Below are positions 8,996 to 28,662 of a stretch of 28,662 nt of DNA, one piece after another. Each line of letters opens with the position of its first letter. Position 1 is the stretch's first letter. A model generated the notes under the pieces. It was not told where the DNA came from. It saw nothing but the letters and a program-made list of their open reading frames with translations, and searched no databases. The position numbers and the translations under genes are program-made. This stretch comes from a virus (lineage: Duplodnaviria; Caudoviricetes), in the IMG/VR virus record IMGVR_UViG_3300020595_000145, positions 1-28,662 of that record, one strand, 5' to 3'.

Positions 8996-9319
8996 TTACT
9001 TATATTTAGAAGTAGCTGATTTAAATTGTTGTTTATTTACTTTTCCAGAACTATCTACTAATTGTTGACCATTTTTCTTTTGGGGTTTAGATGATTCATT
9101 TGCTTTAGTATAATGTTCTTTAAGTTTAGATAAAGTAAATCTTCTTAAATATATAGGCATATTATATACTTCACTCCAAATATAACCTCCCCCACCATGA
9201 AATACTACTTCATGAACTTCGGTTAATATACTTTTTCTAAATTGTGGTGCGTTATCGGATGTCAGGCCAAAAAAAGTTAAGTCCAATGGGAATTGAAGTT
9301 TTTTCTCCAGTGCGTTCAC
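8996..9319 (-). CDS. Second tail-assembly chaperone frame (gpT / gp51-like), probably reached by frameshift
   Basis: Overlaps the upstream gene by 68 nt in the +1 frame; weak GTG start; core 'VHEVVFHGGGGYIWSEVYNMPIYLRRF' resembles the 'ENMxPxER/MPxxxR' pattern of gp51/gpT-like chaperones. Confidence 0.6.
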   Translation of the reverse strand: MNALEKKLQFPLDLTFFGLTSDNAPQFRKSILTEVHEVVFHGGGGYIWSEVYNMPIYLRRFTLSKLKEHYTKANESSKPQKKNGQQLVDSSGKVNKQQFKSATSKYK

Positions 9320-9980
9320 GAAAAAAAGTTAGGTCAACATCAGGTTGAATTTTATTAATATATGTTCTTAATGCTCGGGCATCTTGAGCTAAAAGATAAT
9401 TATCAACAAAATTTCGAATATCAGACCTTTCTTCACTACCATCTACAGATAAAATCATATGTTTTAATCTAGTAGTTAATTCTGCTGAATTGTTGGAATT
9501 AATTCGTTTTAGTCCTTTAATTTCTTGGGCAATTTTTACTTCATCACCATGAGTTAGAATTTTAAACTCAATAGTAATTTTAGTAGAAGGTAATTCAAAA
9601 GAAAATCTGTTATTACTTCTAGTAAAAAGGGATTCATCAATTTCTTTATTATCTAACTGACTCAAGTCAATATTATATTCTTCTCCTTGGTAAGAAAATT
9701 TATAGTCTTTACCATATCCTAAAATACGGGAAGATACCATAATAGCATTTTTATCACCAATTAATAAATCATTATAATTAACATCACTTACAATTAAAGA
9801 TTTCATTAATTTATCTAGTACAGTACCATCATTAATATAATTAGCATTAGTAAGAATATCTTCTTCTTTTGCTGTCATATATTTAATTTCAATTTTCCCA
9901 GATGATAAAGGGTTATCTGTTGAGTAAAGAAGACCTTTAGAAGGTAGTTGTACTGTTTCTGTTGGTAATTTAAATTCCAT
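9252..9980 (-). CDS. Tail/baseplate hub assembly chaperone (T4 gp26-like)
   Basis: 242 aa; 'VQLPSKG...IKYMTAKEEDIL...DLLIGDKNAIMVSSRILGYG' is a gp26-like pattern; lies between tube and tape measure. Confidence 0.7.
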   Translation of the reverse strand: MEFKLPTETVQLPSKGLLYSTDNPLSSGKIEIKYMTAKEEDILTNANYINDGTVLDKLMKSLIVSDVNYNDLLIGDKNAIMVSSRILGYGKDYKFSYQGEEYNIDLSQLDNKEIDESLFTRSNNRFSFELPSTKITIEFKILTHGDEVKIAQEIKGLKRINSNNSAELTTRLKHMILSVDGSEERSDIRNFVDNYLLAQDARALRTYINKIQPDVDLTFFRERTGEKTSIPIGLNFFWPDIR

Positions 9981-10009
9981 ATCTTTTATTTATAATAACT
10001 TTATTCGAG

Positions 10010-10018
10010 TATAAATAT
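10010..10018 (-). promoter_or_regulatory. Putative late promoter motif ATATTTATA
   Basis: Immediately after the terminator and 29 nt upstream of the chaperone ATG. Confidence 0.6.
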
Positions 10019-10024
10019 GAATAT

Positions 10025-10053
10025 AAAAAAGAGCTTGAACGAATCCAAGCTCT
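10025..10053 (-). terminator. Rho-independent terminator after the tail tube gene
   Basis: Minus strand AGAGCTTGGA-TTCG-TTCAAGCTCT-TTTTT: 10-bp stem (one G:U), UUCG tetraloop and U-tract, about 25 nt after the tube stop. Confidence 0.85.
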
Positions 10054-10077
10054 CTTTACAAAAATATTTGTTTTTTT

Positions 10078-10566
10078 TTAGAAGTTCAAAATACAGTAAT
10101 CAGGTTGTACAGTCATTGAAATTTCAACAGCAGAATCTACTGTATCATAATTATAATCACCGAAGTTTGCTGATGTAATTAAAGCACCCTTAATAATCCA
10201 TTCTGAAACTACATCACCAACTGGGCCTAATACGTTAAATGTTAAATCTTTTTTATAGAAATCTGAATAACCATCTCTACCAGTTACTGATTCGTGGTGT
10301 AGACGTACCCATTCCATTACCGCTTGAGCACCTGAAGGGGTAATTGGGTCAAATAATGTAAAATCGATTGTGTCCCAAGTAGTTTTACCTTTAACGAAAC
10401 GTTGTACGTTAATATGATTTAAAGGTACTGTTCCTTGGGATAAAGATACACCACTTACACCTTTTACCATGAATGATGGAAAACCATCCATATACATGAT
10501 GAACCTATTAGTTTGTTTTGGTTCAAAAGCTGTGAAGAAAATTTCGTTAGGGTCTAATACTGCCAT
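10078..10566 (-). CDS. Tail tube protein (T4 gp19-like family)
   Basis: 162 aa right after the sheath; 'FEPKQTNRF...GKTTWDTIDFTLFDP...MEW...YKKD...GPVGDVVSEWIIKGA' is a typical tube signature. Confidence 0.9.
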   Translation of the reverse strand: MAVLDPNEIFFTAFEPKQTNRFIMYMDGFPSFMVKGVSGVSLSQGTVPLNHINVQRFVKGKTTWDTIDFTLFDPITPSGAQAVMEWVRLHHESVTGRDGYSDFYKKDLTFNVLGPVGDVVSEWIIKGALITSANFGDYNYDTVDSAVEISMTVQPDYCILNF

Positions 10567-10586
10567 TTTGCGTTATATTATTTTAT

Positions 10587-10595
10587 TATAAATAT
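10587..10595 (-). promoter_or_regulatory. Putative late promoter motif ATATTTATA
   Basis: 20 nt upstream of the tube ATG; context TGAATATTTATAAT is shared with the sheath copy. Confidence 0.6.
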
Positions 10596-10610
10596 TCAAC
10601 TTTTAAATCC

Positions 10611-12353
10611 TTATGATGGGAAAGTAGCTCCTGTTGGAAGTACGTTAAAGTCTAGGATAATAAATTCTGCCGTTTTAGTTGGTTGTAGAAAAATCTGGCC
10701 TACTAATTGGTTTCTATCGATAACATCTGGGGTGTTGTTACTATCATCCATTACTACTTTAAATGCATAAAGACCTTGTCTTTGTTGAACACTTTCTAAG
10801 TAAGGGTTTACTTGTGATAAGAAGTTATTTCTTGTAGCAGCAGTATTTTGTTCAAATACTAAAGTTTGAGAAATCTGACCAATATAGCTTTTTAAAGAAA
10901 TTAATAATCTTCTTACATTTACTCTATCTAAAGCACTTGCTTGACGTTGTAATGTTTTTTGTCCATATACTACTGTACCTACTCCAGGGAATGAAGCAAT
11001 TGGGTTAACTTTAGCATTATATAAAGTATCTCTATTAGATTGAGATAATTTTCTTTCTGGACGAATTACGGTGGTTAAACCACCTCTATTAATACCCGCC
11101 GGAGCGAACCATGGTTCAGAGGCATTGTCGTTAAATGCGTAAACTCCCGGAATCATTGTCGAGGCTGGTACCCATACATTATCACCAGTATCTGGATCTG
11201 ATGTTTGTAACCATGGCCAATACATAGCACCATAAGATGAGTTAATAGTACCAGCTTCTGCTACAGGACCATCGGCCGCTGAAATGGCAAGACCATATGC
11301 GGAAGGATCAATAATATAAATTGCATCTCCTCTACTTTGTACATTGTTAATAGCAGTAGTAATAGCTGTGCTATGTGCCGAAACACCTCTAATTAAACCT
11401 GGGGTAGTTAATACATTAAATTGGTAATCATCTTGGTTAGCTAATAAATTTAGCATATCACTATAATCTGCTGCTACTAAACCTTGAGTTTGGGTAGCAA
11501 TGTCCCCAAACATATTGTTAACACCTTGGGCGTTAATTAAACTACCTTCTCCATCTTCGAAAGTACCGGAATAAGAACCTGAACCTTGTGTAGGAATGTA
11601 CCCTGAGAAAGCAGCTTTAGCATTACCAGCATTATCAAAGTAATCTGGGGTTTTAAGTGATACAGATTTTACTCTTACATATCTAGAAGCATTAGGATAA
11701 TCGCCTGTTACTTTTACATAATTTTCAGTTGTATCATACTCGTATTTATAATCACCAATTACTCTAGCAACATAATTATCAGATTTAGGGTCTAATGATA
11801 ATCCTGAGAATGTTTCTAAAACAGTTTTATTAGTGTCTTTATCATCACCTCTTCTAATTAATAAATCAAAAGTACCATTATCTGATGAAGAATTTGCTAC
11901 TTCCCATCTAATATTATCTTTAGAACCTGAATATAATGCACCATCCCCATTTGGGATTTGGTTTACAGATCCAGAATTATTAAATAATTCCCCTTGATCT
12001 AAAACTTCAAGTGTAAATGCAGTTCCATCTTCAGCAGGGATTGCTGATTCAGCATAATCCCAAGTTGAAGAACCTGATACTACTCTAGCTACTAATAAAG
12101 ATTCACCTCCATTTTGGAAGTAATTATAAGCTGAGATTGATGTTAGGAATGAATATTGATCACTCCCACTGTCAAAAGTAGTACCAAAACGATTTTGATA
12201 ATCCGAATACGAAGTAACAATTGTAGGAATTTCTACAGGACCTTTTACTGTAGGACCAACAATAGCAGCACCTACTGTTACAGGTTGCTGTGTGATAAAT
12301 GATTGGTCGTTTTCCCTTGTTAATACACCAGGTGAAATTAAAGTTTCTGCCAT
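10611..12353 (-). CDS. Contractile tail sheath protein
   Basis: 580 aa; N-terminal 'SPGVLTREND', 'GPTVKGP' and C-terminal 'WFAPAGINRG...NPI..FPG.G..VYGQKTL...SALDRVNVRRLL...FEQN...PTKTAEFI' are sheath hallmarks. Confidence 0.95.
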   Translation of the reverse strand: MAETLISPGVLTRENDQSFITQQPVTVGAAIVGPTVKGPVEIPTIVTSYSDYQNRFGTTFDSGSDQYSFLTSISAYNYFQNGGESLLVARVVSGSSTWDYAESAIPAEDGTAFTLEVLDQGELFNNSGSVNQIPNGDGALYSGSKDNIRWEVANSSSDNGTFDLLIRRGDDKDTNKTVLETFSGLSLDPKSDNYVARVIGDYKYEYDTTENYVKVTGDYPNASRYVRVKSVSLKTPDYFDNAGNAKAAFSGYIPTQGSGSYSGTFEDGEGSLINAQGVNNMFGDIATQTQGLVAADYSDMLNLLANQDDYQFNVLTTPGLIRGVSAHSTAITTAINNVQSRGDAIYIIDPSAYGLAISAADGPVAEAGTINSSYGAMYWPWLQTSDPDTGDNVWVPASTMIPGVYAFNDNASEPWFAPAGINRGGLTTVIRPERKLSQSNRDTLYNAKVNPIASFPGVGTVVYGQKTLQRQASALDRVNVRRLLISLKSYIGQISQTLVFEQNTAATRNNFLSQVNPYLESVQQRQGLYAFKVVMDDSNNTPDVIDRNQLVGQIFLQPTKTAEFIILDFNVLPTGATFPS

Positions 12354-12672: not shown

Positions 12673-14946
12673 TTATTTTTTACTATTTAATTTATTTTTT
12701 ACTATTTTAAATACTTGGTTAGGGGTTATTGATTTCTGGCAAATATGTTGTTTGTCAGTGCCCTTCCAAATGGGACACCAATCCCAATCACCTGCATCAA
12801 AAGTGAAATTTGGGTTAGTCCAACAAGGAAAACATGCATTACCATTAGCTACTCTAGTTACTTTGGTTGTAAATTCATGACCTTTTTCAACAAAACCATT
12901 TATCATTATAGTATGTTTATTTAAAGCCCAATTAAACCATGATAAGCCTGAACCTAATCCTATAAATAGATCAGCATGTAATAAATAATTAGCTATTACA
13001 TTAAAAGGTTGATTCCATGAGTTTATTACATTAGGTAAATCAGATTGATCTTTAGTTAAAGCTACTACTTTATACCCAATTTGGTTTAATAATTTAGTTA
13101 AAATAATCCAGTTTTCTCTTGGCCATTCTTTACACCCAGCAGTAGACTGGGGGCCTATGACTACATACTTTTCTAAAATGGGTTTTGTTTGTTTTTTAAA
13201 ATCAATACCATGATTAATTTCTTTAAAATTTAAACCTAAAATATCTGTAGCTGTTTGTTGTAAAGGTATAGTATTACATTGGGTAGGATGCATATCTGTG
13301 TTTTCCCATCCCCCTTGTTCATTTCTAAACCAACCTATTTTGTAATGAGCTATACAAGGGGTTGAAGTACCAGGGTCAATAAATTGAATTTTTTTATAAG
13401 CAGGAAGATTTTTGAACCAATCATTATGAAAAGTACATAAAATAACTTTACAATTATGTTTTTCAGCAAATTCTACAGCATAGGGAGTCCAAGCTAAAGT
13501 ATCACCTAATGAACTTGAATCAATAGAAATAAATACTGGTTGGTTTTGGAGTTCTAATCTAGAAACCTCTTTTCCATTTACTTTGATTAACCAAGGAATA
13601 TAATATTCTTTACTACATTCTACCCACATATTATTATGGATAGTTTGTTGGTGAATAATTTTATTAGTATCTCTATTGATAAATTCTACTTGATATTCTT
13701 TATCAACATCCCCTATAATTTCTACCTTAGGTTTTCCTATATAATTAACACTTATAGTATTAGTATCTTTGGGTTCTTTATAATTATCTAAAAATTCTTG
13801 GATAGTATCTCTACCAATTTTTGCTACTTTATCCCAATTAAAATCTCTATGAATAATTTTTGCTTCTTCTACAGCACGTTTTTTATGATCTGTATAATTT
13901 TCAAAAGCATCACGCATTACACGAGATAAGTCTTCATAATCAGGTTCGTAATAATTGCCTACATGATTTGGATTTTTAACTTCATTTTTTATTTGTACTG
14001 GGAGGCCTTTACCTTTTGCAAATTCTAATTGCCCTGAACAGTTAGAGTAAATAGAGGGAGTACCGCAAGCCATAGCTTCAATTAAAGGTAAATTCCACCC
14101 TTCACTACGTGCACAAGATAAAAACACATTACCTTGTTTCATATAGGTAACATAATCTTCTCTACTAACAAAATGCTTTACTTTAATACGTTTATCGGTA
14201 AAACCAAAATGTTCTAACCTTTCTTCTGTAGAATTAAAATCATCATTTGCAAAATTATTATCAGCAGCTAAAATAAGATCTACAGGGTCTTCTTTAGTAA
14301 ACGTTTTTAAAAAAGTTTCAATAATTTCTTTTGTTGATTTTCTATATTCCCATCTACCAAAAAGAATAAATTTAAATCTACCATCTACATAATCTAAAGT
14401 AGTTAGAGGATCTTCAGGATAAAAAGTATTTACATCTACACCTTCGGGGACTACTTTTACTTTTTTAGGATCGGCACCTTGAGCAATAGTACAATCTGCT
14501 TGCCATTGAGAAGGAACCCACATTTGATCAAATTCTTTCCATTTATTAAAAAACCCTTTAGGTTGTTCTGTGGATTCCCATACATTATAACCAATTTTAG
14601 GACCTTTATAATAATCATAAAAATAATGATGGTTGGTTTCCATTAATACTAAATTAACATCATGATCAAATTTATCCCCATGTTTAGTATAAATTGAAGA
14701 ATCTTCTCTACTATTATCTCCAGTAGTAAGTGTTTGTTTATTTAATAAAATTTTATCTAAATCTGTAAGATAGGATTCATTATTATGGGGTTCATCTGAA
14801 AACCCTTCCCATGTATTACCTACTGTATAATTACGAACTTTAACTGGAGTTGATTTAGATAAATGTCTAAAAAAATCTCTAGTATGATTAGCATAACCTG
14901 TTGTACCTACATAGGCACCATGAGCATAAACTTTTGGTTCTTTCAT
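12673..14946 (-). CDS. Fusion of a GT4 glycosyltransferase and an Aah/TibC-like (autotransporter strand-loop-strand) O-heptosyltransferase
   Basis: N-terminal GT-B/GT4 motifs (TTGYANHTR; GRWEYRK; ARSEGWNLPLIEAMACG, i.e. E-x7-E). C-terminal half has 'SSSLGDTLAWTPY..EF..KHNC', 'HADLFIGLGSGLSW' and a four-Cys pattern CFPC...WCP...HICQK, like the iron finger of TibC/Aah. Confidence 0.8.
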   Translation of the reverse strand: MKEPKVYAHGAYVGTTGYANHTRDFFRHLSKSTPVKVRNYTVGNTWEGFSDEPHNNESYLTDLDKILLNKQTLTTGDNSREDSSIYTKHGDKFDHDVNLVLMETNHHYFYDYYKGPKIGYNVWESTEQPKGFFNKWKEFDQMWVPSQWQADCTIAQGADPKKVKVVPEGVDVNTFYPEDPLTTLDYVDGRFKFILFGRWEYRKSTKEIIETFLKTFTKEDPVDLILAADNNFANDDFNSTEERLEHFGFTDKRIKVKHFVSREDYVTYMKQGNVFLSCARSEGWNLPLIEAMACGTPSIYSNCSGQLEFAKGKGLPVQIKNEVKNPNHVGNYYEPDYEDLSRVMRDAFENYTDHKKRAVEEAKIIHRDFNWDKVAKIGRDTIQEFLDNYKEPKDTNTISVNYIGKPKVEIIGDVDKEYQVEFINRDTNKIIHQQTIHNNMWVECSKEYYIPWLIKVNGKEVSRLELQNQPVFISIDSSSLGDTLAWTPYAVEFAEKHNCKVILCTFHNDWFKNLPAYKKIQFIDPGTSTPCIAHYKIGWFRNEQGGWENTDMHPTQCNTIPLQQTATDILGLNFKEINHGIDFKKQTKPILEKYVVIGPQSTAGCKEWPRENWIILTKLLNQIGYKVVALTKDQSDLPNVINSWNQPFNVIANYLLHADLFIGLGSGLSWFNWALNKHTIMINGFVEKGHEFTTKVTRVANGNACFPCWTNPNFTFDAGDWDWCPIWKGTDKQHICQKSITPNQVFKIVKNKLNSKK

Positions 14947-14947
14947 A

Positions 14948-15697
14948 TTATCGCATTATGTGACACCCACAATCAATACCTCTAGATCCTTCAAATCCAT
15001 GGTACATAGGTTTAAGTGGAATTTTTTTATTGTTTATATGTTGTAAAATTAAAGTTTCATTAATAAATACATCATTATTATTATCTCGGTATTCTGGGTT
15101 ATGAAATATATTATAAAGCATTTCAGAAAACACGCTACAATAATCTTTTATTAAATGAGGAGGACCGATTGCTAATTGGTCATTCATTTGCCAATCCATA
15201 TTCCAATGTGGAGCGTATTCCCAAAAACTAACGTGTTCTGTACTTAGTTTAGTTATATCTGTAAGTAAATCACAATTATTAGCTACGTTATGAGTAAATA
15301 ATAAATCATAACGTGTTTTAAATACTAAATCATATTCAATACCTGAAGATTCACATAGGTCCCAAACGCGTTGTGTTGACATCCACATTCCCATTTGAGA
15401 ATTTAAACGTTGATTATTAGGACCTTTTATATCTGAAGCATCAAATTGGATAGAAGGTTCAAATAAGTATCCTTTAGGTTGATACCAATCAAGTAAATTT
15501 TGATACAAATCATTTCCTACTTCATATGTTTTTTGAACCTTACCTTCATTAAAAAAGTCATATTTTTTAAATTCAGTATCTTTCCAAGCATGAAGGTATA
15601 CATCAATATCATACTTATCTAAAAACCATTTTTTAAGTTCTTGATAACCTTCTCTATATCTACGTGGTTGACCACTAATTAATAATGCTATTTTCAT
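14948..15697 (-). CDS. Putative glycosyltransferase-like protein (SGQPR / RYD family), paralog 2
   Basis: 249 aa; 'KIALLISGQPR', 'DVYLHAW', 'YDLVFKTRYD', 'NDQLAIG', 'NETL'; resembles GT-A-like proteins of polysaccharide loci. Confidence 0.55.
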   Translation of the reverse strand: MKIALLISGQPRRYREGYQELKKWFLDKYDIDVYLHAWKDTEFKKYDFFNEGKVQKTYEVGNDLYQNLLDWYQPKGYLFEPSIQFDASDIKGPNNQRLNSQMGMWMSTQRVWDLCESSGIEYDLVFKTRYDLLFTHNVANNCDLLTDITKLSTEHVSFWEYAPHWNMDWQMNDQLAIGPPHLIKDYCSVFSEMLYNIFHNPEYRDNNNDVFINETLILQHINNKKIPLKPMYHGFEGSRGIDCGCHIMR

Positions 15698-16458
15698 CGT
15701 AAAATATGAGCTGTAAAATGTTCTGTTAAACTATTTATAAAATTAATAGGTATTTCGTTTTTTACTAAATGATACTTTAATAAACTTTCAGGACATAATT
15801 TATCAGGATGGTCTGAAATTAAAGGTTTAAACCATTCAGGGTATCCTTCATCTATGTAAATGTATTCCAACATATGGGAAAAACAATTAGAATACACATC
15901 CATAATTTCCATAGAACTAATGGCAAACAAATCATCTACTTCAGATATTCTAGTAGGATAACCATTAAGTATAGGATATTCAAATAAATTTATACCACTT
16001 AAATCTAATTGTGTAATGTCCTTTAAAATAAGACATTCAGGTGAAATATAATCTGTAAAAGCTAAATCAAATCTAGTTCTAATAACTATATCGTATTGTT
16101 TACCTGAGTCTTGGAGTAATTTATTACAAGCATAAACTGAATAATACCCACTTAGCATATTATGGAGCCTGTAGCCTAAGTGTCCTTCTATATTTGTTGT
16201 ATCAAAAGGGATAGGGTGTTGTAGAAAACTATCTTTAGGTTGATATAACTCTAATATTTTATCATAGTCATTTTCTGTGAATTTATATTCAACCAAAGTA
16301 GGAGCAAATTTATGTCCCCCAGTCATAGGAGAATTTACATCTTTCCAAGTATGAAGGTAAACATCACAATCATACTTGTCTAAAAACCACTTTTTTAATT
16401 CATGATAACCCTGTTCGTAATTACGGGGTTGACCACTAACACAAACTGCTACTTTCAT
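15694..16458 (-). CDS. Putative glycosyltransferase-like protein (SGQPR / RFD family), paralog 1
   Basis: 254 aa; 'KVAVCVSGQPR', 'DVYLHTW', 'YDIVIRTRFD', 'DDLFAIS', 'PESLL'; clearly paralogous to 14948-15697 and joined to it by an ATGA overlap. Confidence 0.55.
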   Translation of the reverse strand: MKVAVCVSGQPRNYEQGYHELKKWFLDKYDCDVYLHTWKDVNSPMTGGHKFAPTLVEYKFTENDYDKILELYQPKDSFLQHPIPFDTTNIEGHLGYRLHNMLSGYYSVYACNKLLQDSGKQYDIVIRTRFDLAFTDYISPECLILKDITQLDLSGINLFEYPILNGYPTRISEVDDLFAISSMEIMDVYSNCFSHMLEYIYIDEGYPEWFKPLISDHPDKLCPESLLKYHLVKNEIPINFINSLTEHFTAHILR

Positions 16459-17072
16459 TACTTAAAATGACCTCCTCCTAGCCAAAGTACAAATGATTTT
16501 CTAGTACCTGAAGTAACTGGGGTTACTCTATGCATTAGATAAGATGGGAATATTACTACATTACCTTTACCACGTGGTGCAGTATATGGAGACTGACCAC
16601 CTGGCCAAATTTGTAAATCACCACCTTCATATTCATCTGAATCAGATAATTGGACTGTAACAGAAATTTTACGGAATTTCATAAAACCTTCAGTTCCAAT
16701 ATCCATATGCCAATCGTAATGCCCTTTATTAGTACCATAATACTCCGTATACTGAATATTTTCTGGCATATTGTGGATATCAAAATGGAACATTTCATCA
16801 TTAGCAATTTTAGCTAACATACCAATTTTATCATAAATCCATTTAGTTTCATCACTAAACGGAACCCATTTAATCATAGAATTACGTGATTCTAAACCCT
16901 CACCTTCTGCTTGGTTTCCAGATTCAGTTACCCCAGCTTGTGAGGGAATTTCTTGTACTTGTTGTTCGAGAGTTTTTAATTCTTCTGGGGTAAAACCTTC
17001 CTCAAACCAATAATAATTACTTTGATTGACATATTTGTCAAAATCTAATGGAAAAGAATAAAGTGTCTCCAT
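16458..17072 (-). CDS. 2OG-Fe(II) oxygenase, prolyl-hydroxylase-like (PKHD/2OG-FeII_Oxy_3 type)
   Basis: HxD (YDWHMD), 'RKISVTVQLS', 'YEGGDL', distal His (FPSYLMHRVTPV) and RxS (GTRKS). Confidence 0.85.
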   Translation of the reverse strand: METLYSFPLDFDKYVNQSNYYWFEEGFTPEELKTLEQQVQEIPSQAGVTESGNQAEGEGLESRNSMIKWVPFSDETKWIYDKIGMLAKIANDEMFHFDIHNMPENIQYTEYYGTNKGHYDWHMDIGTEGFMKFRKISVTVQLSDSDEYEGGDLQIWPGGQSPYTAPRGKGNVVIFPSYLMHRVTPVTSGTRKSFVLWLGGGHFK

Positions 17073-17078
17073 ATTTTT

Positions 17079-19406
17079 TTATTTTTTATTTGTAAATGAT
17101 ACTAATATATAACGTGTTCCTGTTTCTACTGGTCTACCTCCGTGTAAATGAGTAATGTTTCCGGGGTGAGCCATAGCATATCCTTTTTTACGTGGTTGTA
17201 CTGTAGTTTTATATTTTGGGAGGAATGTACCTCCACCTTTAAATTCATTATTTAATCTAACATTCAATGTAATAACAGAACTATCATGATGCAAGTCTAA
17301 GCTGCCTTGGTTTTCTGTATCGTATTTAGCTATAAAGTTTTCACTGGTTAGATTACCCCAACCATCACCTTGTAATTCCCAAAACCAAGTCCAGATAGGA
17401 TAAACAAATTCCTCTAATACTCTTTGATAAATGTCTTGCATACCTAAACTTTCCATAGTTTGGTCGGTTGTAGGGTAAAATTCATGTCTATCAGTAATCC
17501 ACTCGTTTTGTTCAGCTAAGTCAATAATTTCATTACAGAATTTTTCTGTAAATAATGGGAATTCTATTACGTTAGAAGCAATTTCATCTACCATCAAACG
17601 ATATTGGCCTTTTAATAATGCTGGGTTGATGTATTCTTTGCACCATTCCTCCCAGTTAGATACTTTTTTAATAGATGGGGTTATACCTTGGATATTAAAT
17701 GTAGATAATTGGTCTGCTATATAAAATGTTAAACCAGGGCTATCTTTTTGAATATAATGGTTTATTATAGGAGCTGCTGCTTTTAAACGGGTTTTTCCTG
17801 AGTATTCAGCTAGGATATCTTGGCGATGTGTCATACCAAATGTAATAGAAAGGAATTCATCAAAAGCAAACATTTCACTTTTATATTGTTCCATATATTC
17901 CTCTACTAAAATTTGAACACCTCTTTTAGATAAAATATAAGCGTGAGAATTATAAGTATAATCAGGTTCTACCCATCCATCTAAACCTTCTATTGGTTTT
18001 TCTAATGAAGCCTCTAAAGCATTACGTCCTAAATAAATTAAGTCGTACCCTCTATTTAATAATTCCTCAACTTGAGCCCAGTCTACTGGGGTGTCCTCAT
18101 AGAAGTCTTCTTCTAAAATTAAAGTAGTTTCTAAACCCCTGCGATATGAATCTACCCAAGTATCTACGTGAGATAAACCACAGCCTAATTCACCTTCCAT
18201 TACATCACGTTTCCACCATTTATTACTACCCTCAATATTCCATCTAGAATGTTTAGCTACACCAAATTTATCCCAATCTTCTTGAGACATTTTACGAGCA
18301 TCAAATCCGGGTTTGATAAAATATTCTGTAGGTGAGGGTAAAGTAATATTATTACATTTTTCTACTATCTCTGGGGTTTCTTGTAGTGCTAAAACGTAAA
18401 ATAACTCTAAATTCATATGTGTTTTTGTTATTAAAGAATTCCAATGTTTATTTACTCTGGAGTCCCATGTACATTCATCTAAATAATTAGGTACTTGATC
18501 CCAATCTATAACTTCAGTAGTATTTAAGGTATCAAAACCATTTAATGTTTCTTTTAATCCTCCCCATTCCCATGTAATAGGTTGAACTTTATGTCCTAAC
18601 ATCTCTAAAGCAGTAATACAGAAAGTCTCCTCGTATGATGAGGGATAATACCAATAGGTACTCTCTGCCATTAATTCATATAGCTCATGTTGGGGTAATG
18701 TACCAAGGAATTCTATACCATCCAAATTATCTACTAAATCCTTAAAATAAATGTTGTAATATTCTAACCCATATTCTGGGGTAGATATTTTTAGTGTAGC
18801 CTTAGGGTTATTAGATTTAATATCACCCCATTCTTGTAGAAGTTGAAATAATCCTCGTTCACAATGTGAGGTATAAATGTATTGATTTGGGTTTTTATTA
18901 CCTATTTTAAATTTAGAAATATCTACTCCATTACCTATAACTTGGATTTTATCTCTAGTTTCTGGGAATTGTTCTATAAATTTGTTTTTATGCCATTCTG
19001 TTAGACAGACTATAGATTTTAAGCGAGAATCTAATAAAAGTTCACGATGGTTTGGTAGTTCTTCGCCATTCCACCACGTGAAATAATCGGTATTATGTAC
19101 CCAAAATATCGAATCGGTATACTCGATATCCTCAAATTCTTTAATGTAATGAATGTATGAAACCCCAATAATAGTATCTACAGAATCGACTTCATTTTTG
19201 AAATCTTGTGTGGGTCTATACATTACTCCATCATAATCCCCATAAACTACCCCACCAACGACCCAAATATCCCAAATTGGATTTTGGGATTTAAGGGTTT
19301 TAGCTAAATTTATAATACATTGTTCTGTACCCCCTAAACCAATTTCGTCTATAGTTTCAGGTGAGTAAGGTGGGAAATAATATCCCGCGTATATAACTAA
19401 TTTCAT
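17079..19406 (-). CDS. Three-domain fusion: GT4-like glycosyltransferase + COLGALT-like GT25 + PLOD-like lysyl hydroxylase
   Basis: aa ~1-325 GT-B (GLGGTE; YEETFCITALEM). aa ~331-560 GT25 (GELGCGLSH, LILEED, YDLIYLGR, VEPDYTYNSHAYILS, DEFL). aa ~580-775 matches the PLOD lysyl-hydroxylase pattern (FPLFTEKFC, YPTTD, NFIAKY, LHHDSS.ITLNV.LN, GGGT, HPGNITHLHGG.P...GTRYILVSF). Confidence 0.85.
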   Translation of the reverse strand: MKLVIYAGYYFPPYSPETIDEIGLGGTEQCIINLAKTLKSQNPIWDIWVVGGVVYGDYDGVMYRPTQDFKNEVDSVDTIIGVSYIHYIKEFEDIEYTDSIFWVHNTDYFTWWNGEELPNHRELLLDSRLKSIVCLTEWHKNKFIEQFPETRDKIQVIGNGVDISKFKIGNKNPNQYIYTSHCERGLFQLLQEWGDIKSNNPKATLKISTPEYGLEYYNIYFKDLVDNLDGIEFLGTLPQHELYELMAESTYWYYPSSYEETFCITALEMLGHKVQPITWEWGGLKETLNGFDTLNTTEVIDWDQVPNYLDECTWDSRVNKHWNSLITKTHMNLELFYVLALQETPEIVEKCNNITLPSPTEYFIKPGFDARKMSQEDWDKFGVAKHSRWNIEGSNKWWKRDVMEGELGCGLSHVDTWVDSYRRGLETTLILEEDFYEDTPVDWAQVEELLNRGYDLIYLGRNALEASLEKPIEGLDGWVEPDYTYNSHAYILSKRGVQILVEEYMEQYKSEMFAFDEFLSITFGMTHRQDILAEYSGKTRLKAAAPIINHYIQKDSPGLTFYIADQLSTFNIQGITPSIKKVSNWEEWCKEYINPALLKGQYRLMVDEIASNVIEFPLFTEKFCNEIIDLAEQNEWITDRHEFYPTTDQTMESLGMQDIYQRVLEEFVYPIWTWFWELQGDGWGNLTSENFIAKYDTENQGSLDLHHDSSVITLNVRLNNEFKGGGTFLPKYKTTVQPRKKGYAMAHPGNITHLHGGRPVETGTRYILVSFTNKK

Positions 19407-19424: not shown

Positions 19425-19661
19425 TTAAGGTATTTCACTTATATCTGGTTGATACCATTCATCAATTCTATTTGGAGAGTAAATCCAATCTTGAACGTCA
19501 TTGGACTTTTCAAATTTTACTAGATAATCTGATATTACATAGCTATGGTGAACTTCAATTATACATTCACTTCCACTTGTATTCCATACAGGAGAATACT
19601 CTAAATTATCAGAATGTACATTATATTGACTTACATTTAAAATATAATAAAATTGTGCCAT
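19425..19661 (-). CDS. Small hypothetical protein, possibly a fibre-associated/assembly factor
   Basis: 78 aa acidic/aromatic ORF filling the gap directly after the LamG-tipped fibre gene (10 nt and 18 nt spacers). Confidence 0.55.
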   Translation of the reverse strand: MAQFYYILNVSQYNVHSDNLEYSPVWNTSGSECIIEVHHSYVISDYLVKFEKSNDVQDWIYSPNRIDEWYQPDISEIP

Positions 19662-19671
19662 AATTCAAAAA

Positions 19672-22600
19672 TTAAAATCCATACGCTCCAAAACTCATTC
19701 CGCTTATAGAAACATTGGAGAGGTTATTATTGTATTGAGTAATAGTACCCCCATCATCAAAACTAACATTTGTAATTAAATTAGTAGTACTTATAGTTTG
19801 TGCTGCTTCTGCTCTTGTAGAATCATATAGATTACTAACTACTGATGATGATAGTGTTTTATTATAAAAAGCCCACTCGTCTATTCTACCATTCCATGGG
19901 ACAGTTGTTAAAGCATGTCTTTGAGCACCTATAGCTAACCTTCCCATAGTATTATTAGTTCTAGTATTATTATTAGAGACTGCTACAGAAGTTAATTGTG
20001 AAGCATTCCAATAACATTTAAATGCATTTGAAGCTATAGTTTGGGATGCATCATAGGTAATTGTAAGCATACACATATTATCACTATTAACATTACCCCT
20101 ATTTGTACTTAACCATTTATTTGAAGAAGAAGTACCAGTACCTGTAGCTGAGTTATTATCATGTAAAGCCCACTGAGCATCAAAGTTTGTAGCGTTAGTT
20201 CTTATTCTCATTATAAGTCTATTAGAACTTTGGTTGTATTGTAAGAATGTACGATTATTAGTACCAGAAGTAGTATTATTAAAATCCCATACAGTACGAT
20301 TTGCTGCTGATGTTTGGTCCATTCTAACATATACTCTAATACTCCAATCAAAATTAGTTAGATTATCGTAAGAGCCATTCATAGTAGCTGTAACATTATC
20401 ATTAGTACCATCAAAATCGCCGTAGTAATAATTTTTATATGCTTGTTCTGCACTTGTAATTAAACCATTTGTAAAATCTAAAGCGGTAGAATAACCTGCT
20501 TGGTCTTTTAATCCATATATTGTAGGGGATGTTGAAACACCTGGATAAGTAGCTTGTGATTGACCTGGGTTACCTTTAGGGCCAATTAAACCAATAGGAC
20601 CTTCAGGACCTTGAGGTGAAGGACCAATAGGACCAATAGGACCAATAGCACCAATAGGACCAATGGCACCTGTAGCACCTGATGGACCAATGTTACCAAT
20701 TAGACCTTCAGGACCTTGTGGACCATTTGGACCTTGTGGACCATTTGGACCTTGAGGACCAATAGCACCTTGTACACCTATAGGACCTTTAGCACCTGTT
20801 CTACCTTTAGGACCAATAGCACCTATAGCACCAGCTGGACCTTGAGGTCCTCTAGCACCTGGGGCTCCTTGAACATTAGCTGGACCAATAGGACCGATAC
20901 TACCTTTAGGACCAATTAAACCTTCAGGACCTATAGGACCTTTAGGACCTTGTGGTCCTAACGGACCAATTGATGCTGTAGGACCTTTAGGACCTATTAA
21001 ACCTTCAGGACCTTGAGGACCTAATGGACCAATTGGACCAATAGGACCTTCAGGACCTTTAGCACCAATATCTGGTGTATTACCTTTAGGACCAATTAAA
21101 CCTTCAGGACCTCTTGGACCTTTAGGACCAATAGGACCTTTAGGACCAATTAAACCTCTAGCACCAATACCAGCATCTGTACCTCTAGGACCTATTAAAC
21201 CTTCGGGACCTTGTGGACCTAAAGGACCTAATGGACCAATAAGACCTTGAGGACCTATAGGACCATTTACATTTTCTATACCTCTATCACCTATTAAACC
21301 TTCAGGACCTTGTGGGCCTAATGGACCTTGTGGGCCTATATTTCCTTGTGGACCAATAGCACCGATAGCACCAGCGGGACCTTGAGGACCTTCAGGACCA
21401 ATAGCACCTTTAGGACCTATATTACCTATACCACCTGTTCTACCTTTAGGACCAATAGCACCTATAGCACCTATTGGACCTTTATTACCTATCAAACCTT
21501 CAGGACCTTGGGGACCTAATGGACCAATTGGGCCAATATTACCTTCAGGACCTTTAGGACCAATATCAGGTGTATTACCTTTAGGACCTATTAAACCTTC
21601 AGGACCTTGTGGTCCTAATGGACCAATATTACCTTGTGGACCTATTGGGCCAATAGCACCTTGTGGTGCCGCAGGACCTATATTACCAATTAGACCTTCA
21701 GGACCTTGCGGTCCTATAAGACCTTCAGGACCAATAGGACCTTGTGGACCAATAGCTCCTTGATTACCCGATATACCTTTAGTACCTATGGGACCTGTTA
21801 CTCCTTTAGGGCCTTTATTACCTCTAGGACCTTCGGGACCTTGTGGTCCTAATGGACCAATTGCGCCTGCAGGGCCCTGTGGTCCCAGTGGACCTATAAT
21901 ACCTTTAGGTCCTATATTACCTATACCACCTGTTCTACCTTTAGGACCAATAGCACCTATAGCGCCCGATGGACCTTTATTACCAATAAGACCTTCAGGA
22001 CCTTGTGGGCCTAATGGGCCAATAGGACCAATGTTACCTTCAGGGCCTTTAGGACCAATATCTGGTGTATTACCTTTAGGACCTTGAGGACCAAGTGGTC
22101 CTATAGCACCATTATCTCCTCTAGGACCTTGAGGACCTTGAATTCCTTGATCGCCTGAGGTGTAAATTTCGTCTGTGTGTTGGTACCATGTAGAACCTGA
22201 TGATTCTGATGGTTTTTTCCAAAATACTGTTAAACCGTCACCACCACTATATTCTTGTTGATAAACTACAATATTATAACTAGTACCTGCTGTTAATGAA
22301 ATAGTACCAGTTGTAGTACCTAAAGCGCTTCTACCTCTACCACCATAAAAAGAAGCAACAATAGTACTTCCAATTTTCAATTGAACAGAATCATCAGATT
22401 CTGCTGTAAAGGTGTACGTACCAGTTTCTGTTGGTCTAAATATACCTGTTACTCTGGTTGAAAAATATGCTCCAGAATTAGGGACTGTAATTCCTAAGGA
22501 TTCAAGTAGGGCTGTAGTAGTCCAATTTAAAGCATTAGTTGTATTATTTAAGTCACTAACTACTGAATCTGTAAATGATGTATTTGATAGGTTTACATTA

Positions 22601-23952
22601 AAGAATGATTCAAAATCTGAAGCATTACCTGGGTAATTTGAATATTGAGAAGTATTACCATTACCATTATGAGTAGAGAAAGTTTCTATTAATACACTAC
22701 CTTCAATTTCATTTGGTTGACCTTTAGGACCTATAAGACCTTCAATACCTTTAGGACCTTGTGGGCCTAATGGACCAATAGCACCTTGTGGGGCTGCTGG
22801 ACCAATAGGACCAATAGCACCTTGGGCTACATCTTCACCAATAAGACCTATAGGACCTTGTGGTCCTAATGGACCGATAGGACCTTTAGGACCTTGTGGA
22901 CCTAATGGACCAATTGCACCTTGTGGGGCAGCTGGGCCTATATTACCTATTAAACCTTCAGGGCCTTGAGGACCTTGGGGACCTAATGGACCAATAGCAC
23001 CTATAGGACCAATAGGTCCGTTTACAGCTTCTACACCAATAGCACCAATCCCCCCTGTTAGGCCTTTATCACCTATAAGACCTTCAGGACCTTGTGGTCC
23101 TAATGGACCAATTGCACCTTGTACGTTTGCATCTCCTCTAGGACCAATTGCACCTTGTACGTTTGCATCCCCTCTAGGACCAATATCACCTCTAGAGCCT
23201 ATAAGACCTTCAGGACCAATAGGACCTTGTGGGCCTAAGGGACCAATATTACCTTTTTCTGCTGCGTTACCTATATTACCAATTAAACCTTCAGGACCAA
23301 TATTACCTCTAGGACCTTCAGGGCCTTGTGGACCTAATGGACCAATTGCACCTTGTACATTTGCATCCCCTCTAGGACCAATAGCACCTTGTGGAGCATC
23401 AGCACCTATATTACCTATTAAACCTTCAGGACCTTGTGGTCCTATAGGACCTTCATTACCTTTTATACCTTGAGGACCTTTAGGACCTGTTACATTAGTA
23501 GGACCTTTAGGGCCTATAGCACCTTGAGGTGCAGCATCTCCAATTAAACCTTCAGGACCTTGTGGTCCTATAGGACCTTCATTACCTTTTATACCTGTAA
23601 TTCCTTTAGGTCCTTGTAAACCTCTAGGGCCCCGATCACCTTGTGGTCCTTGTAATTCTATTTTACCTGAACCACTATCACCTACTGCAATACTATTTGT
23701 ATTAGAATCAAATATTACAGCACCTGTAGGTGGGTTAGCAGGGGCTCCAGCTTGGGTAGGTAAAATAATAGTAGCATCGTTACTAACATTTAATGTTTTA
23801 GTATCGGAGTCCTTCATTTCCATTAAGGAATCTCCTCTTTCATTAGTAACTTCAACTACAGAACCACTAATAGTATAAATAATTTTACTACCGTTTCCGT
23901 TATCGAACTCTACACTACCTGAGGAAGGTATTATTTTAACGCTTTTAGCCAT
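19672..23952 (-). CDS. Collagen-like fibre protein with internal PA14 domain and C-terminal LamG/ConA-like lectin domain
   Basis: 1426 aa; Gly-X-Y tracts at aa ~100-410 and ~600-1130; PA14 motif (FSTRVTG.F.P.ETGTYTF..ESDDSV.L.I...YQQEYSGG); LamG-like end (FDGTND...[23 protein letters not shown]). Confidence 0.85.
20565..22155 (-). repeat. Coding 9-nt collagen repeat tract (C-terminal tract of the 1426 aa protein)
   Basis: Period-9 GGTCCTNNN repeats, with higher-order repetition of the [10 protein letters not shown]...[13 protein letters not shown] block (about 22080, 21585, 21090). Confidence 0.9.
22720..23650 (-). repeat. Coding 9-nt collagen repeat tract (N-terminal tract of the 1426 aa protein)
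   Basis: Period-9 repeats, including a 36-nt tandem duplication at 23105-23140/23141-23176 (1 mismatch). Confidence 0.9.
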
Positions 23953-23971
23953 TTATATGGATATCTATTTA

Positions 23972-26821
23972 TTAACTAAAACTAACAAGTACACCTTGTT
24001 CAAACCCAAAATTACTAGTTGTACCATCAGCTCCCTGGATTGAAAAGTCAGTATCTATTCCAGTAGGGGCATCAGCACCCGCTGGACCAATATTACCTTG
24101 TGGACCTCTAGGACCAATAGCACCTGTAGTACCTGCAGGACCAATAGCACCTCTAGGGCCAATATTACCTTTTGGACCAATAGGTGAAGAACCTCCAGGA
24201 CCAATAGGACCTTGGACCCCAATAGGACCTCTAGGACCAATTGGACCTCTAGGACCAATAGCACCTTCAGGACCAATAGGTGAGTTACCAATAGGACCTT
24301 GTGCTCCTGTTGGTCCTTCAGGACCAATAGGTGAGTTACCAATAGGACCTCTAGGACCCTGAGCACCACTAGGTGATGTACCTTTAGGACCAATAGCACC
24401 TCCTGGACCTATAGGACCTTGTGGACCTATAGCACCTTGAGGACCAATAGGACCTCTAGGACCAATAGGTGAAGTACCTTTTGGACCAATAGGACCTTGA
24501 ACCCCAATAGGACCTCTAGGACCAATTAAACCTCTAGGACCTTGAATACCTTGTGGACCAATTGGTGAACTACCAGCAGGACCAATAGGACCTTGAATAC
24601 CTATAGCACCTGCAGGACCAATAGCACCACCAGGACCAATAGGACCTTGTGGACCAATTGGTGAACTACCAGCAGGACCAATAGGACCTTGAATACCAAT
24701 AGGACCTCTAGGACCTCTTGGACCAATATTACCAATAGGACCTTGTGGACCAATTGGTGAAGTACCTTTAGGACCAATAGGACCTTGGTTTCCAATAGGA
24801 CCTCTTGGACCAATTAAACCTCTAGGACCTTGGATACCTTGTGGACCAATAGGTGAATTTCCAATAGGACCTCTAGGACCAATAGCACCTCCAGGACCAA
24901 TATTACCAATAGGACCTTGTGCTCCTGTTGGTCCTTCAGGACCAATAGGTGAAGCACCTTGAGGACCGATAGGACCTTGTATACCAATAGGACCTCTAGG
25001 ACCAATTAAACCTCTAGGACCTTGAATACCTTGTGGACCAATTGGTGAACTACCAGCAGGACCAATAGGACCTTGAATACCAATAGGACCTCTAGGACCA
25101 ATATTACCTATACTACCTTTAGGGCCAATATTACCTTGTGGTGATGTACCTTTAGGACCAATAGGGCCTTGAACTCCAATAGGACCTCTAGGACCTCTAG
25201 GACCAATATTACCAATAGGACCTCTAGGACCAATAGGTGAAGCACCTTGTGGTCCAATGGGGCCTTGTTCTCCGCCTACACCAATAGGACCAATAGGACC
25301 TTGAATACCAATTGGGCCTCTAGGACCGATGGGTGAATTTCCAATAGGACCTCTAGGGCCAATAGCACCTCCAGGACCTATATTACCGATAGGACCCTGT
25401 GCCCCTGTTGGTCCTTCAGGACCGATAGGAGAGTTACCTTGTGGTCCAATAGGACCTTGAATACCGATAGGACCTCTAGGACCAATATTACCTTGGGGAC
25501 CTTGAATACCAATAGGACCTATAGGTGAACTACCAGCTGGGCCAATAGGACCTCTAGGACCGATAGGACCTATATCACCTTTAGTACCTTTAGGTCCTGC
25601 TGGACCTTGTGCTCCTGTTTGACCTTTATCTCCTTTAGGACCAATAGGACCTTGAATACCTTGTGGACCAATTGGACCTCTAGGACCGATTGGACCAATA
25701 GGTGAAGTACCTTTAGGACCAATAGGACCAATAGGAGATGTTCCTTTAGGACCCGTAGGACCAATAGGACCTCTAGGACCAATTGCACCTTGTATGCCAA
25801 TAGGACCTCTAGGACCAATATTACCAATAGGAGATGTTCCTTTAGGACCAATAGGACCTTGGATACCTATAGGACCTCTAGGACCTCTAGGACCAATGTT
25901 ACCAATATTACCTTTAGGACCAATTGGTGAAGTACCTTTAGGACCTTCAGGACCTTGAGCACCTGTTGGACCAATAGGACCTTGTATACCAATAGGACCC
26001 CTTGGACCTATAGGACCAATAGGAGATGTCCCTTTGGGACCAATAGGACCAATAGGTGAAGTACCTTTTGGACCAATAACACCTATAGGACCTATAGGAC
26101 CTTGTGGACCAATATTACCGATAGGACCTCTAGGACCAATGTTACCAATAGGGGATGTTCCTTTAGGACCAATAGGACCTTGTGGTCCAATGTCACCAAT
26201 AGGACCTTGAATTCCAATAGGACCTCTAGGACCAATAGGACCAATAGGTGAAGTACCTTTTGGACCTATAGGACCAATTGGTGAAGTACCTTTAGGACCT
26301 TCAGGACCTTGGGGGCCAATTAAACCTCGTGGACCTTGAATACCTGTGGGACCCTGAATACCTTGTGGACCAATAGGAGATGTTCCTTTAGGTCCAATAG
26401 GACCAATAGGTGAAGTACCTTTAGGACCTTGTGGTCCAATTAAACCTCTAGGACCTTGTATACCTGTAGGACCTTGGGCTCCGTCGTCTCCAATAGGACC
26501 TTGTGGACCTCTAGGACCTTGAACACCTTTTTGACCACCACCTATTTCAAATTGTGTACTACTTTTTACAAGTAATTGATTTGTTGATGAATCAAAGAAC
26601 ATAGCTCCTTCAGGAGCATCCGATGGAGTACCACTTACAGTGGGAATTATAAATTCAGCACTATTATCTATGTTGATAGTACTACCAGTCATAGACATGA
26701 GGGTAGTACCACCCGCCTTAGTGGTGAGGGTACCGCCATCCATTTCCATTTCTACGCTATTACCTCCGTCTGTGAATTCAAAGCTACCTGAGCCGGGGAT
26801 TATTGTAACGTTTTTAGCCAT
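23972..26821 (-). CDS. Collagen-like fibre protein (about 820 aa Gly-Pro-Y tract)
   Basis: 949 aa; about 95 aa N-domain, long [12 protein letters not shown] tract with G(T/N/S/A)SPIG interruptions, about 30 aa C-terminal beta segment. Confidence 0.9.
24070..26540 (-). repeat. Coding collagen repeat tract of the 949 aa protein
   Basis: Period-9 repeats with 15-nt interruptions; 98-nt identical blocks at 24504-24601 and 24984-25081. Confidence 0.9.
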
Positions 26822-26848: not shown

Positions 26849-28662
26849 TTATTTAACTTGGTACTCAACTTCTATTGGTCCATCTGCTTTTCTTTCTGCA
26901 TGAACTATGTAGTAAGCATTAACTTCTCCACATTGACATCCTACAGTAATTGATGCAGTTGTAACAGTATCTACATAATGAGTACATGGACTTCCTACGG
27001 GAGTTAATTGGACTGATATACTGTCTTCGTATACTAACCCGCTCCAGTAATCTGGGAGTTCAATTGTGTTACTTCCGCTGAGATGACCTCTAACATAAAC
27101 ACCTCTTTCAGGACCCTCCATTACAGAGTGACGAAGTCTCCATCCTTCTTTTGTTGGGTGTGGTATATCAAACTGTTTTTCTTCAGCTGTAAATACACCT
27201 GAAACATTAAAGGTATTTCCATCCCAAGTAAGTCCAGCATCACTAGTAACAGTATTAGCATCTGACCAATAAGTTATACGAGTAGCAGCACCTGAACCAT
27301 CTACTAGACTAGAACCCCAAACACGAGAATCAATCTCATCTGTTTTTAGGAAACCATCTGCATCTTTTATTACTACAGAGTTATCAACACCTGTAGTTAA
27401 ATTGGCTTTTACTGTATTAGCAATAATTTCCCAAGGATTAGTAGTATCACCTAAGGTATTTCCTGAAGCTTCTGAAATTATATCCCCATCTATTTTCCCT
27501 TGGAATTGGATGGTATCAGTTGCTGCATTACCCAATATAGTATTACCTGTTACAGTTAAACCCCCAGTTACAGTTAGTGTACTACCATTAAATACTAAAT
27601 TAGCTTCTGCATTAGCTGCACCTTGAACCCCAGTTGAAGTTAATACTCTATTATTACCTAAATTAGTTATAGTAGCTGTACCTGAAGTACCTGAGCTACC
27701 TGATGAACCTGAAGTACCTGATGAGCCTGATGAACCACTTGAACCTGATGTACCTGAGCTGCCTGAACTACCTGATGAGCCTGAGCTACCACTTGTACCT
27801 GAAGTACCTGATGAGCCTGAACTGCCTGATGAACCTGAAGAACCACTTGATCCACTAGTACCTGATGAGCCTGATGAACCACTTGAACCTGATGTACCTG
27901 ATGTACCTGAGCTGCCTGAACTACCTGATGAGCCTGATGAGCCTGAACTACCTGAAGTACCTGATGAACCACTTGAACCTGATGAGCCTGATGTACCTGA
28001 GCTGCCTGAACTACCTGATGAGCCTGATGAGCCTGAACTACCTGATGAACCCGCAGCACCACCTACAGCAAAGTTAGAATAAAATTCTTCGTTATTTGAA
28101 GGTGTTGCACCTGTTCTAGTTACATTACTTAGAGAAAAAAGCCAATAAACTCCTTCGTCTCCTATAGCTGTGAAGCCATTTAATATTATTTTAGCTGTTG
28201 ATGTTTTTGAGGTAAAGGTAATAGTACCTGATAACTCCATATCTCCAAATAGAGAAGCAAAGTTTGTTGCAGGGGAGAATGCTTGTTCTGCAATTTCTAA
28301 ACTATCACCACTAGATATACTTCCCCAAGCTACATCAAACCCAAAGTATCCTGTACCTGGGAGGGAAAGTAGATTAGTTGTGTATTTCCAAGTTGCTACA
28401 CTATCGGGAGCACCTGAACTACCTGATGAGCCTGATGAACCACTAGAACCTGATGTACCTGATGAACCACTTGAACCCGAAGTGCCTGAAGAGCCTGAGC
28501 TACCGCTTGTACCTGAAGAACCTGAGCTACCTGATGTACCTGATGAGCCACTTGAACCTGAGGTTCCAGAAGTAGCTGCTGCTTCTTTTGTTTTTACTAC
28601 CCCATCGGAGTCTATTACTAATACAGTATCCTCGTTAGGTGCTGTAGGGAGAGTACCTGAGA
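26849..28662 (-). CDS. Tail fibre-like protein with Gly-Ser-Ser/Gly-Thr-Ser repeats and C-terminal intramolecular-chaperone-like domain (5'-truncated)
   Basis: The frame stays open upstream of the ORF-track Met at 28240 to the window edge (SGTLPTAPNEDTVLVIDSDGVVKTKEAAATSGTSGSSG...APDSVATWKYT...). The C-terminal 'KQFDIPHPTKEGWRLRHSVMEGPERGVYVRG...IELPDYW...VQLTP' is typical of phage fibre ends. Confidence 0.8.
   Translation of the reverse strand, partial: SGTLPTAPNEDTVLVIDSDGVVKTKEAAATSGTSGSSGSSGTSGSSGSSGTSGSSGSSGTSGSSGSSGTSGSSGSSGSSGSSGAPDSVATWKYTTNLLSLPGTGYFGFDVAWGSISSGDSLEIAEQAFSPATNFASLFGDMELSGTITFTSKTSTAKIILNGFTAIGDEGVYWLFSLSNVTRTGATPSNNEEFYSNFAVGGAAGSSGSSGSSGSSGSSGSSGTSGSSGSSGSSGTSGSSGSSGSSGSSGSSGTSGTSGSSGSSGSSGTSGSSGSSGSSGSSGSSGTSGTSGSSGSSGSSGSSGTSGSSGSSGSSGTSGSSGSSGTSGTATITNLGNNRVLTSTGVQGAANAEANLVFNGSTLTVTGGLTVTGNTILGNAATDTIQFQGKIDGDIISEASGNTLGDTTNPWEIIANTVKANLTTGVDNSVVIKDADGFLKTDEIDSRVWGSSLVDGSGAATRITYWSDANTVTSDAGLTWDGNTFNVSGVFTAEEKQFDIPHPTKEGWRLRHSVMEGPERGVYVRGHLSGSNTIELPDYWSGLVYEDSISVQLTPVGSPCTHYVDTVTTASITVGCQCGEVNAYYIVHAERKADGPIEVEYQVK
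27678..28052 (-). repeat. (Gly-Ser-Ser/Gly-Thr-Ser)n coding repeat, block 1
   Basis: 9-nt period (acctgatga / gcctgatga / acctgaagt on the + strand), about 125 aa. Confidence 0.9.
28410..28575 (-). repeat. (Gly-Ser-Ser/Gly-Thr-Ser)n coding repeat, block 2
   Basis: Same 9-nt period, in the same frame as block 1, about 55 aa. Confidence 0.85.

Follow-up and report, generated by a model that had tools for sequence, protein, structure and literature searches.

A contractile-tailed phage encodes, in a single open reading frame, a 775-residue protein in which a GT4 glycosyltransferase, a GT25 glycosyltransferase and a lysyl hydroxylase (LH)-like oxygenase are fused. The three domains have the folds of their families, their catalytic residues are conserved, and the gene holds a constant position behind collagen genes. 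By analogy with characterised collagen enzymes, the protein probably hydroxylates G-X-K lysines of the phage's own fibres and then adds one or two sugars. The gene lies in a 28,662-nucleotide stretch of viral DNA (IMG/VR record IMGVR_UViG_3300020595_000145), called the window below.

The fusion protein and its genomic setting

The fusion gene occupies positions 17079..19406 on the minus strand. Residues 1-330 (18417..19406) form a GT4 domain of GT-B fold that keeps E260 and E268. Residues 331-566 (17709..18416) form a GT25 domain resembling the catalytic domain of COLGALT1, with C409, E432, D434 and D516 in place. Residues 575-775 (17079..17684; domain 575-773) form an Fe(II)/2OG oxygenase resembling the LH domains of PLOD and L230, with H706, D708, H755, Y695 and R765 retained. 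An earlier note on this DNA had proposed a triple fusion in one reading frame with the Fe triad and the 2OG-binding Arg intact, and both points are confirmed. Full-length relatives number 112. Among 120 homologs, the five oxygenase residues are each kept in 114-116, four of the sequences being fragments without the region; C409, E432 and D434 are kept in all 120, D516 in 119, E260 in 117 and E268 in 118. Because the catalytic residues are conserved across these homologs, all three domains look active. Three relatives (L006, 4791-7118; L010; L026, 2334-4493) have an LH domain that is cut short or broken by a stop codon, through either true loss or sequence error.

The genes of the window make up the tail module of a phage with a contractile tail, a setting that the earlier note did not mention. 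They include sheath, tube, baseplate hub and wedge genes, and the contractile-tail core lies at 9252..12353 on the minus strand (sheath 10611-12353, tube 10078-10566, baseplate hub 9252-9980). The order on this strand begins with a GSS/GTS-repeat protein (26849..28240, with a start possibly further upstream than 28240; 61 triplets, 58 Ser at Y, no G-X-K-G). It is followed by a 949-residue collagen-like protein (23972..26821; 235 triplets, with Lys 19 times at Y and never at X), a 1426-residue collagen-like protein with a PA14 domain (19672..23952; 250 G-X-Y triplets, 31 Lys at Y and none at X), a 78-residue ORF with no Pfam or PHROG match (19425..19661) and the fusion. Behind the fusion come a second Fe(II)/2OG oxygenase of 204 residues (16458..17072), which is nearest to PKHD-type hydroxylases and prolyl 4-hydroxylase and travels with the fusion; two paralogous phrog_13607 proteins of 254 and 249 residues (14948..16458); a GT4 fused to a TibC/Aah-like protein O-heptosyltransferase domain (12673..14946; TIGR04414, 229.5 bits against a cut-off of 200); and the sheath. 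Both collagen-like proteins are likely fibres and candidate substrates of the fusion, their fibre identity being assumed from position and repeat-driven PHROG matches.

The nearest cultured sheath, at 54% identity and with identical downstream gene order, is that of Flavobacterium phage immuto (Immutovirus), from which we infer a Bacteroidota host. Immuto is absent from the 13 phage records that match the fusion. Metagenomes that contain the window DNA (20 runs, 16 studies) come mainly from marine and estuary sites. The 1133-residue product of 1360-4761 carries an M15 peptidase domain at its C-terminus and sits where Immutovirus has its 'carboxypeptidase' gp33, and the phrog_13607 genes (14948-16458) occur in one to three copies across relatives and match DUF7796 weakly.

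Other modifying enzymes accompany fibres of other composition. The TibC-like enzyme tracks GSS/GTS fibres: 188-343 Ser-rich triplets are in view at five of nine TibC-positive sheath loci and at none of 12 TibC-negative ones (the window, 12673-14946 and 26849-28240; L084, L085, L087, L091, L101). This enzyme likely carries out Ser O-glycosylation of fibres, with the GSS/GTS-repeat protein as candidate substrate. A PKHD/P4H-like oxygenase at L114:4306-4896 stands beside a Lys-free, Pro-rich collagen, which hints at a proline target; in the window collagens, Pro occurs almost only at X. These collagens (19672-26821) are also unusually rich in Ile at Y (35%), with about 10% charged residues.

Linkage to collagen genes

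Collagen triplets lie upstream of the fusion in 24 of the 25 loci that contain the gene start, several of which are near-duplicates; the 25th has 358 bp upstream. In a distant fusion clade (P0154), collagen lies upstream in six of the eight script-examined loci reaching upstream (L157, L159-L162, L164), a tally in which L163 begins inside the gene and L165 is a separate phage. In L165, GT4 and GT25-LH are split into two genes, which lie behind fibres containing 82 and 66 lysines at Y. The small oxygenase accompanies both the P0154-clade fusion and the split genes of L165, whose collagens differ in make-up. The Aureibacter plasmid pAT5 encodes LH and GT25 as two genes, located behind one for a fibre-like protein that contains a short stretch of collagen. 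Related three-domain genes occur in cultured phages: S-PRM1 gp162 (L156:2669-4513 / L167), S-CAM9 gp218 (L169:14371-16212) and CRP-6 gp58 (L168:8467-10236) encode GT25-GT_PLOD-oxygenase proteins, and S-8S53/55/56 match too. In the cyanophages S-PRM1 and S-CAM9 and the roseophage CRP-6, the gene follows the only collagen-bearing fibre among those examined, with 23, 22 and 26 Lys at Y, respectively.

We also compared sheath relatives with at least 9.5 kb of upstream sequence, 21 out of 80 loci fetched. The LH domain is absent from 18 of the 21, none of which shows more than one collagen Lys at Y in view; at L114 the small oxygenase accompanies a collagen devoid of Lys, and there is no LH fusion. 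This comparison is not independent evidence because the three LH-positive loci are close kin, one being the window phage itself. Lysine at Y is likewise no pointer to hydroxylation, since it is the default in phage collagens: a passage of PMC3368898 gives Lys/Arg as 31% at Y and 0.3% at X in E. coli prophage collagens, with GPK the commonest triplet. Lys at Y drops to 0.8-3% in seven loci that retain the gene (L017, L021-L024, L026, L029). Linkage to collagen is better evidence than the Lys-at-Y pattern.

The oxygenase and glycosyltransferase domains

The oxygenase has the LH-type double-stranded beta-helix fold. The earlier note had named clustering with generic GT25s and non-PLOD oxygenases as the outcome that would speak against its reading. 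Instead, family profiles searched against the PDB scored 113 bits for LH3 and 17.7 for prolyl 4-hydroxylase, and 93 bits for COLGALT1 and 22.7 for a bacterial GT25. The LH domain matches human LH3 (PLOD3) at E 1e-26 and has equivalents of H667, D669, H719, Y656 and R729. Passages of PMC5802723 describe the Fe-triad and 2OG residues of LH enzymes and a tail-to-tail dimer formed through Leu715 and an aromatic pocket. At the corresponding positions of the fusion, Ile751 replaces Leu715, and the pocket is partly preserved: Ile712 replaces Phe673, Trp676 is kept, and the position of Tyr642 is ambiguous in the alignment. Thr727 replaces Cys691 of the LH3 2OG pocket. The capping loop of LH3 carries Arg599 and a second Fe site (H595, D597, D611, H613; passage in PMC6082870), whereas the phage loop is nine residues shorter, the deletion removing D597 and R599, and His613 aligns with Thr. 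Unlike PLOD3, the fusion is without GT_PLOD and accessory domains and has no signal peptide evident at its start; Pfam gave no match to the PLOD GT (PF25342) in it. With Cys691, the LH3 capping loop and these two domains absent, and with the protein outside the eukaryote and giant-virus clade (below), the earlier assignment of the domain to PLOD is not supported.

The fusion has the COLGALT catalytic-domain fold and keeps equivalents of E435, D437, C412 and D522. The C, E-x-D and catalytic D motifs mark GT25 and not COLGALT, because they occur in 18-19 of 19 comparison GT25s. More selective are the positions of R461, Y485 and E517, which COLGALT and giant-virus GT25s share and which are unpublished markers selected in the present analysis: all three are kept in the fusion and in 12 of 12 COLGALT rows each, and in 6, 5 and 2 of 19 generic GT25 rows. 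Trp495 of COLGALT1 is essential and lines the acceptor crevice (passage in PMC12003778). The phage fusion has N486 at this position, where the 120 homologs have Asn in 101, Glu in 15 and Trp in none. COLGALT1 Asp436 is replaced by Glu, the homologs being divided between Asp (61) and Glu (59), and the N-terminal GT1 domain of human COLGALT1 (GLT25D1) has a GT-B domain in its place. The resemblance to COLGALT claimed in the earlier note is borne out by the profile scores; several of the motifs it quoted are common to all GT25s, and Trp495 is missing. Because defining features of both families are absent, we do not file the fusion as PLOD or COLGALT. The GT4 domain has the E-x7-E motif, and its best structural matches share 11-18% identity and act on many different substrates.

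Proposed function

Three steps would turn lysines of the fibres into glycosylated hydroxylysines. Acting on fibre chains that have not yet folded, the oxygenase would convert the lysines of G-X-K-G triplets to hydroxylysine; GT25 would place the first sugar there, and GT4 would add the second, replacing the retaining PLOD glucosyltransferase of the giant-virus and cyanophage versions. Lysine is the expected substrate because of the kinship with L230 and LH3, and collagen enzymes are the closest characterised relatives whether judged by profile, fold or tree. GT25 enzymes are inverting and GT4 enzymes retaining, and from this family chemistry come the predicted linkages and the placement of GT4 in the PLOD-GT slot. 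We infer the order of the steps. Several observations weigh against this reading: Lys at Y falls to a few per cent in some carriers of the gene, Trp495, Cys691 and the full capping loop are missing, three relatives have broken LH domains, and six bacterial loci lack a collagen neighbour. As to benefit, one may speculate that the sugars stabilise or shield Ile-rich fibres with almost no Pro at Y, or tune host binding.

The fibres could instead be decorated by different chemistry, with the oxygenase acting on Arg or Ile at Y or on lysines outside the triple helix, and GT4 working independently, for example by extending Ser/Thr-linked glycans begun by the TibC-like enzyme. The acceptor-site changes, namely N486 for Trp495 and the short capping loop, are consistent with this, as is composition: Ile makes up 29-50% of Y positions in most loci, and Lys falls to about 1% in some. 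The domains also come and go separately. Of 1.84 billion representatives searched with a profile, 988 matched at E below 1e-10; among 163 LH domains, comprising the best 150 of the 988 and added loci, we counted 30 GT4-GT25-LH, 18 GT25-LH and 7 GT4-LH proteins, so that GT4 and GT25 appear to have been gained or lost independently around LH. The same set holds 25 GT25-GT_PLOD-accessory-LH proteins and other architectures. However, in L030, L165, the cyanophages and CRP-6, where Ile is scarce at Y, the gene still adjoins a Lys-rich collagen, and Trp is also absent at the Trp495 position in 3 of 16 giant-virus GT25s. We regard different chemistry as unlikely and retain lysine hydroxylation followed by glycosylation as the preferred reading.

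Evolutionary relationships

The LH family appears as a modular radiation that is deep and diverse in phages. An LH tree was built with IQ-TREE from 76 rows chosen from the 163 domains, with sampling biased towards the queries and an unreliable root; its 'phage' and 'giant-virus' labels are based on architecture and on the loci examined. Eukaryote PLODs (those named being from a cestode, a nematode, an LH3-like record and a choanoflagellate) and giant-virus-type rows form a 25-row clade (100/98). The window protein lies outside it, within a 38-row phage/bacterial clade (96/87) in which the bacterial copies nest among phage-type rows. A GT25 tree of 86 rows unites the phage, COLGALT and giant-virus domains to the exclusion of 16 generic GT25s (100/98) and places the phage domains in a separate 33-row clade (95/86). 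Three rows initially called generic had fallen in the phage clade of a quick GT25 tree and were removed from the outgroup.

In both trees the phage domains make up a clade of their own, next to the animal and giant-virus enzymes and not within them, so we read the phage enzymes as relatives, rather than members, of PLOD and COLGALT. The per-domain phylogeny that the earlier note had called for upholds a grouping near the animal and giant-virus enzymes and makes the phage domains sister lineages, not insertions within PLOD or COLGALT. The note saw a bearing on the origin of collagen-modifying enzymes; with query-biased sampling and an unreliable LH root, the trees do not fix the direction of transfer.

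The target might also lie outside the fibres (for example a glycan on the host surface, lipopolysaccharide or a small metabolite), the tail slot merely collecting accessory genes. In line with this, the genes between fibre and sheath form a changeable set of glycosyl-, methyl- and sulfotransferases, and six bacterial loci with GT4-LH fusions, or GT25-LH plus LH, have no collagen gene nearby. Against it, the GT25 domain groups with COLGALT and giant-virus enzymes rather than with the generic GT25s, and the make-up of the cassette follows the type of fibre. Phage sequences surround the bacterial copies in the LH tree, and a collagen match above the Pfam cut-off is present in four of five such genomes (4 of 14 in the control); these collagens are Lys-rich in two genomes and Lys-free where seen in two (Aquimarina and G002). 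A non-fibre target is distinctly improbable on this evidence, and modification of the fibres remains our reading.

The bacterial and atypical loci merit description in their own right. In Aquimarina sp. RZ0 (L054:4271-6337), GT25 is fused to a degenerate LH copy and followed by an intact LH gene, all between transposase genes; the intact LH nests inside the phage family, likely as a result of phage-to-bacterium transfer, and the long collagens seen in the genome are Lys-free. Solo GT4-LH fusions occur in marine proteobacteria (L049, L053, L056, L057, L061), four of them forming a clade (100/98) among phage sequences, and Aliishimia has a Lys-rich collagen elsewhere in its genome (64 Lys at Y of 158 triplets). 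Two contigs within bacterial MAG records (L045, L050) are giant-virus-like, with 28% GC and an L230-like gene, and are probable binning contamination. In P0138 and P0157, GT25-LH is fused to a C39 peptidase-like domain, which suggests a role in peptide modification and export systems.

In other phages, pairs of an oxygenase and a glycosyltransferase hypermodify DNA. DNA-modifying phage glycosyltransferases are also described in a passage of PMC12619734, but for the fusion this role is very improbable: we found no TET/JBP-type Pfam match at E 0.01, the nearest folds are collagen lysyl hydroxylases, the oxygenase groups with LH enzymes, and the neighbours are structural and not replication genes. 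Equally hard to credit is a recent capture of the collagen-type domains from an animal or giant virus as passengers: the LH domain is 34% identical to L230 over 190 aligned residues, and giant-virus contigs likewise combine GT25 with LH and have an FkbM methyltransferase gene next door, but both trees, and the depth and diversity of the phage radiation, disfavour it.

A broader and decidedly tentative proposal extends fibre modification to a whole pathway. Phages of Bacteroidota, cyanobacteria and roseobacters may hold a full hydroxylysine-disaccharide pathway with swappable second-sugar modules (GT4 or a PLOD-type GT) in a fibre-matched cassette, in which TibC-like enzymes would serve Ser repeats and the small oxygenase Pro. 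The phage pool, holding LH, COLGALT-type GT25 and PLOD GT, would contain all three animal collagen-lysine modules and could be the source of giant-virus and animal PLOD and COLGALT.

Comparison with known systems

Hydroxylysine glycosylation of collagen has so far been described for animals and mimivirus, and we found no paper on a lysyl hydroxylase-glycosyltransferase of tailed phages in the open-access literature. A passage of a 2022 review describes prokaryotic collagens as mostly unmodified (PMC8968730). In 2010, hydroxylation of bacterial collagen-like and tail-collar proteins by dioxygenases linked to them was proposed for other families (passages in PMC2938197). Mycobacteriophage virions are glycosylated by phage-encoded glycosyltransferases (PMC12619734); the targets there are the C-termini of capsid and tail tube proteins, and the passage mentions neither a hydroxylation step nor collagen. 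If our reading is correct, a widespread marine phage group makes glycosylated collagen fibres, with consequences for host recognition and for the origin of PLOD and COLGALT. Its enzymes would be compact and work in the bacterial cytoplasm, where glycosylated recombinant collagen is hard to make (passage in PMC9546862). Cultured phages with related genes make the collagen-modification reading directly testable.

The genes of S-PRM1, S-CAM9 and CRP-6, annotated 'hypothetical protein', resemble the window fusion in having three enzyme domains, the LH-like oxygenase last, behind a Lys-rich collagen fibre. They differ in carrying GT_PLOD where the fusion has GT4 and in their oxygenase, which is further removed (84-87 bits with the family profile) and has Lys in place of the 2OG Arg. 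Their layout is that of the giant viruses minus the accessory domain.

The closest characterised system is mimivirus L230, which joins a GLT25D1-like and an LH domain in one chain, hydroxylates collagen lysines and adds glucose (passages in PMC9614988 and PMC9546862). L230 acts on mimivirus's own collagens, and its sugar is glucose, in contrast to galactose in animals (PMC9614988, same passages). A COLGALT-like and LH fusion, of the kind that the earlier note remarked on, is therefore already found and assayed in L230 (PMC9614988). Like L230, the phage protein is viral and a single chain with a COLGALT-like domain and a C-terminal LH, whose fold superposes at an rmsd of 2.0 over 190 residues. 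Unlike L230, it belongs to a tailed phage, has an N-terminal GT4 and a shorter capping loop, and falls in a separate clade. Marine giant-virus relatives have the PLOD GT and the accessory domain, whereas the phage fusion has neither. Thus, the chemistry has a viral precedent in L230, and what sets the phage enzymes apart is their apparent spread in tailed phages, their sister position and their cultured carriers.
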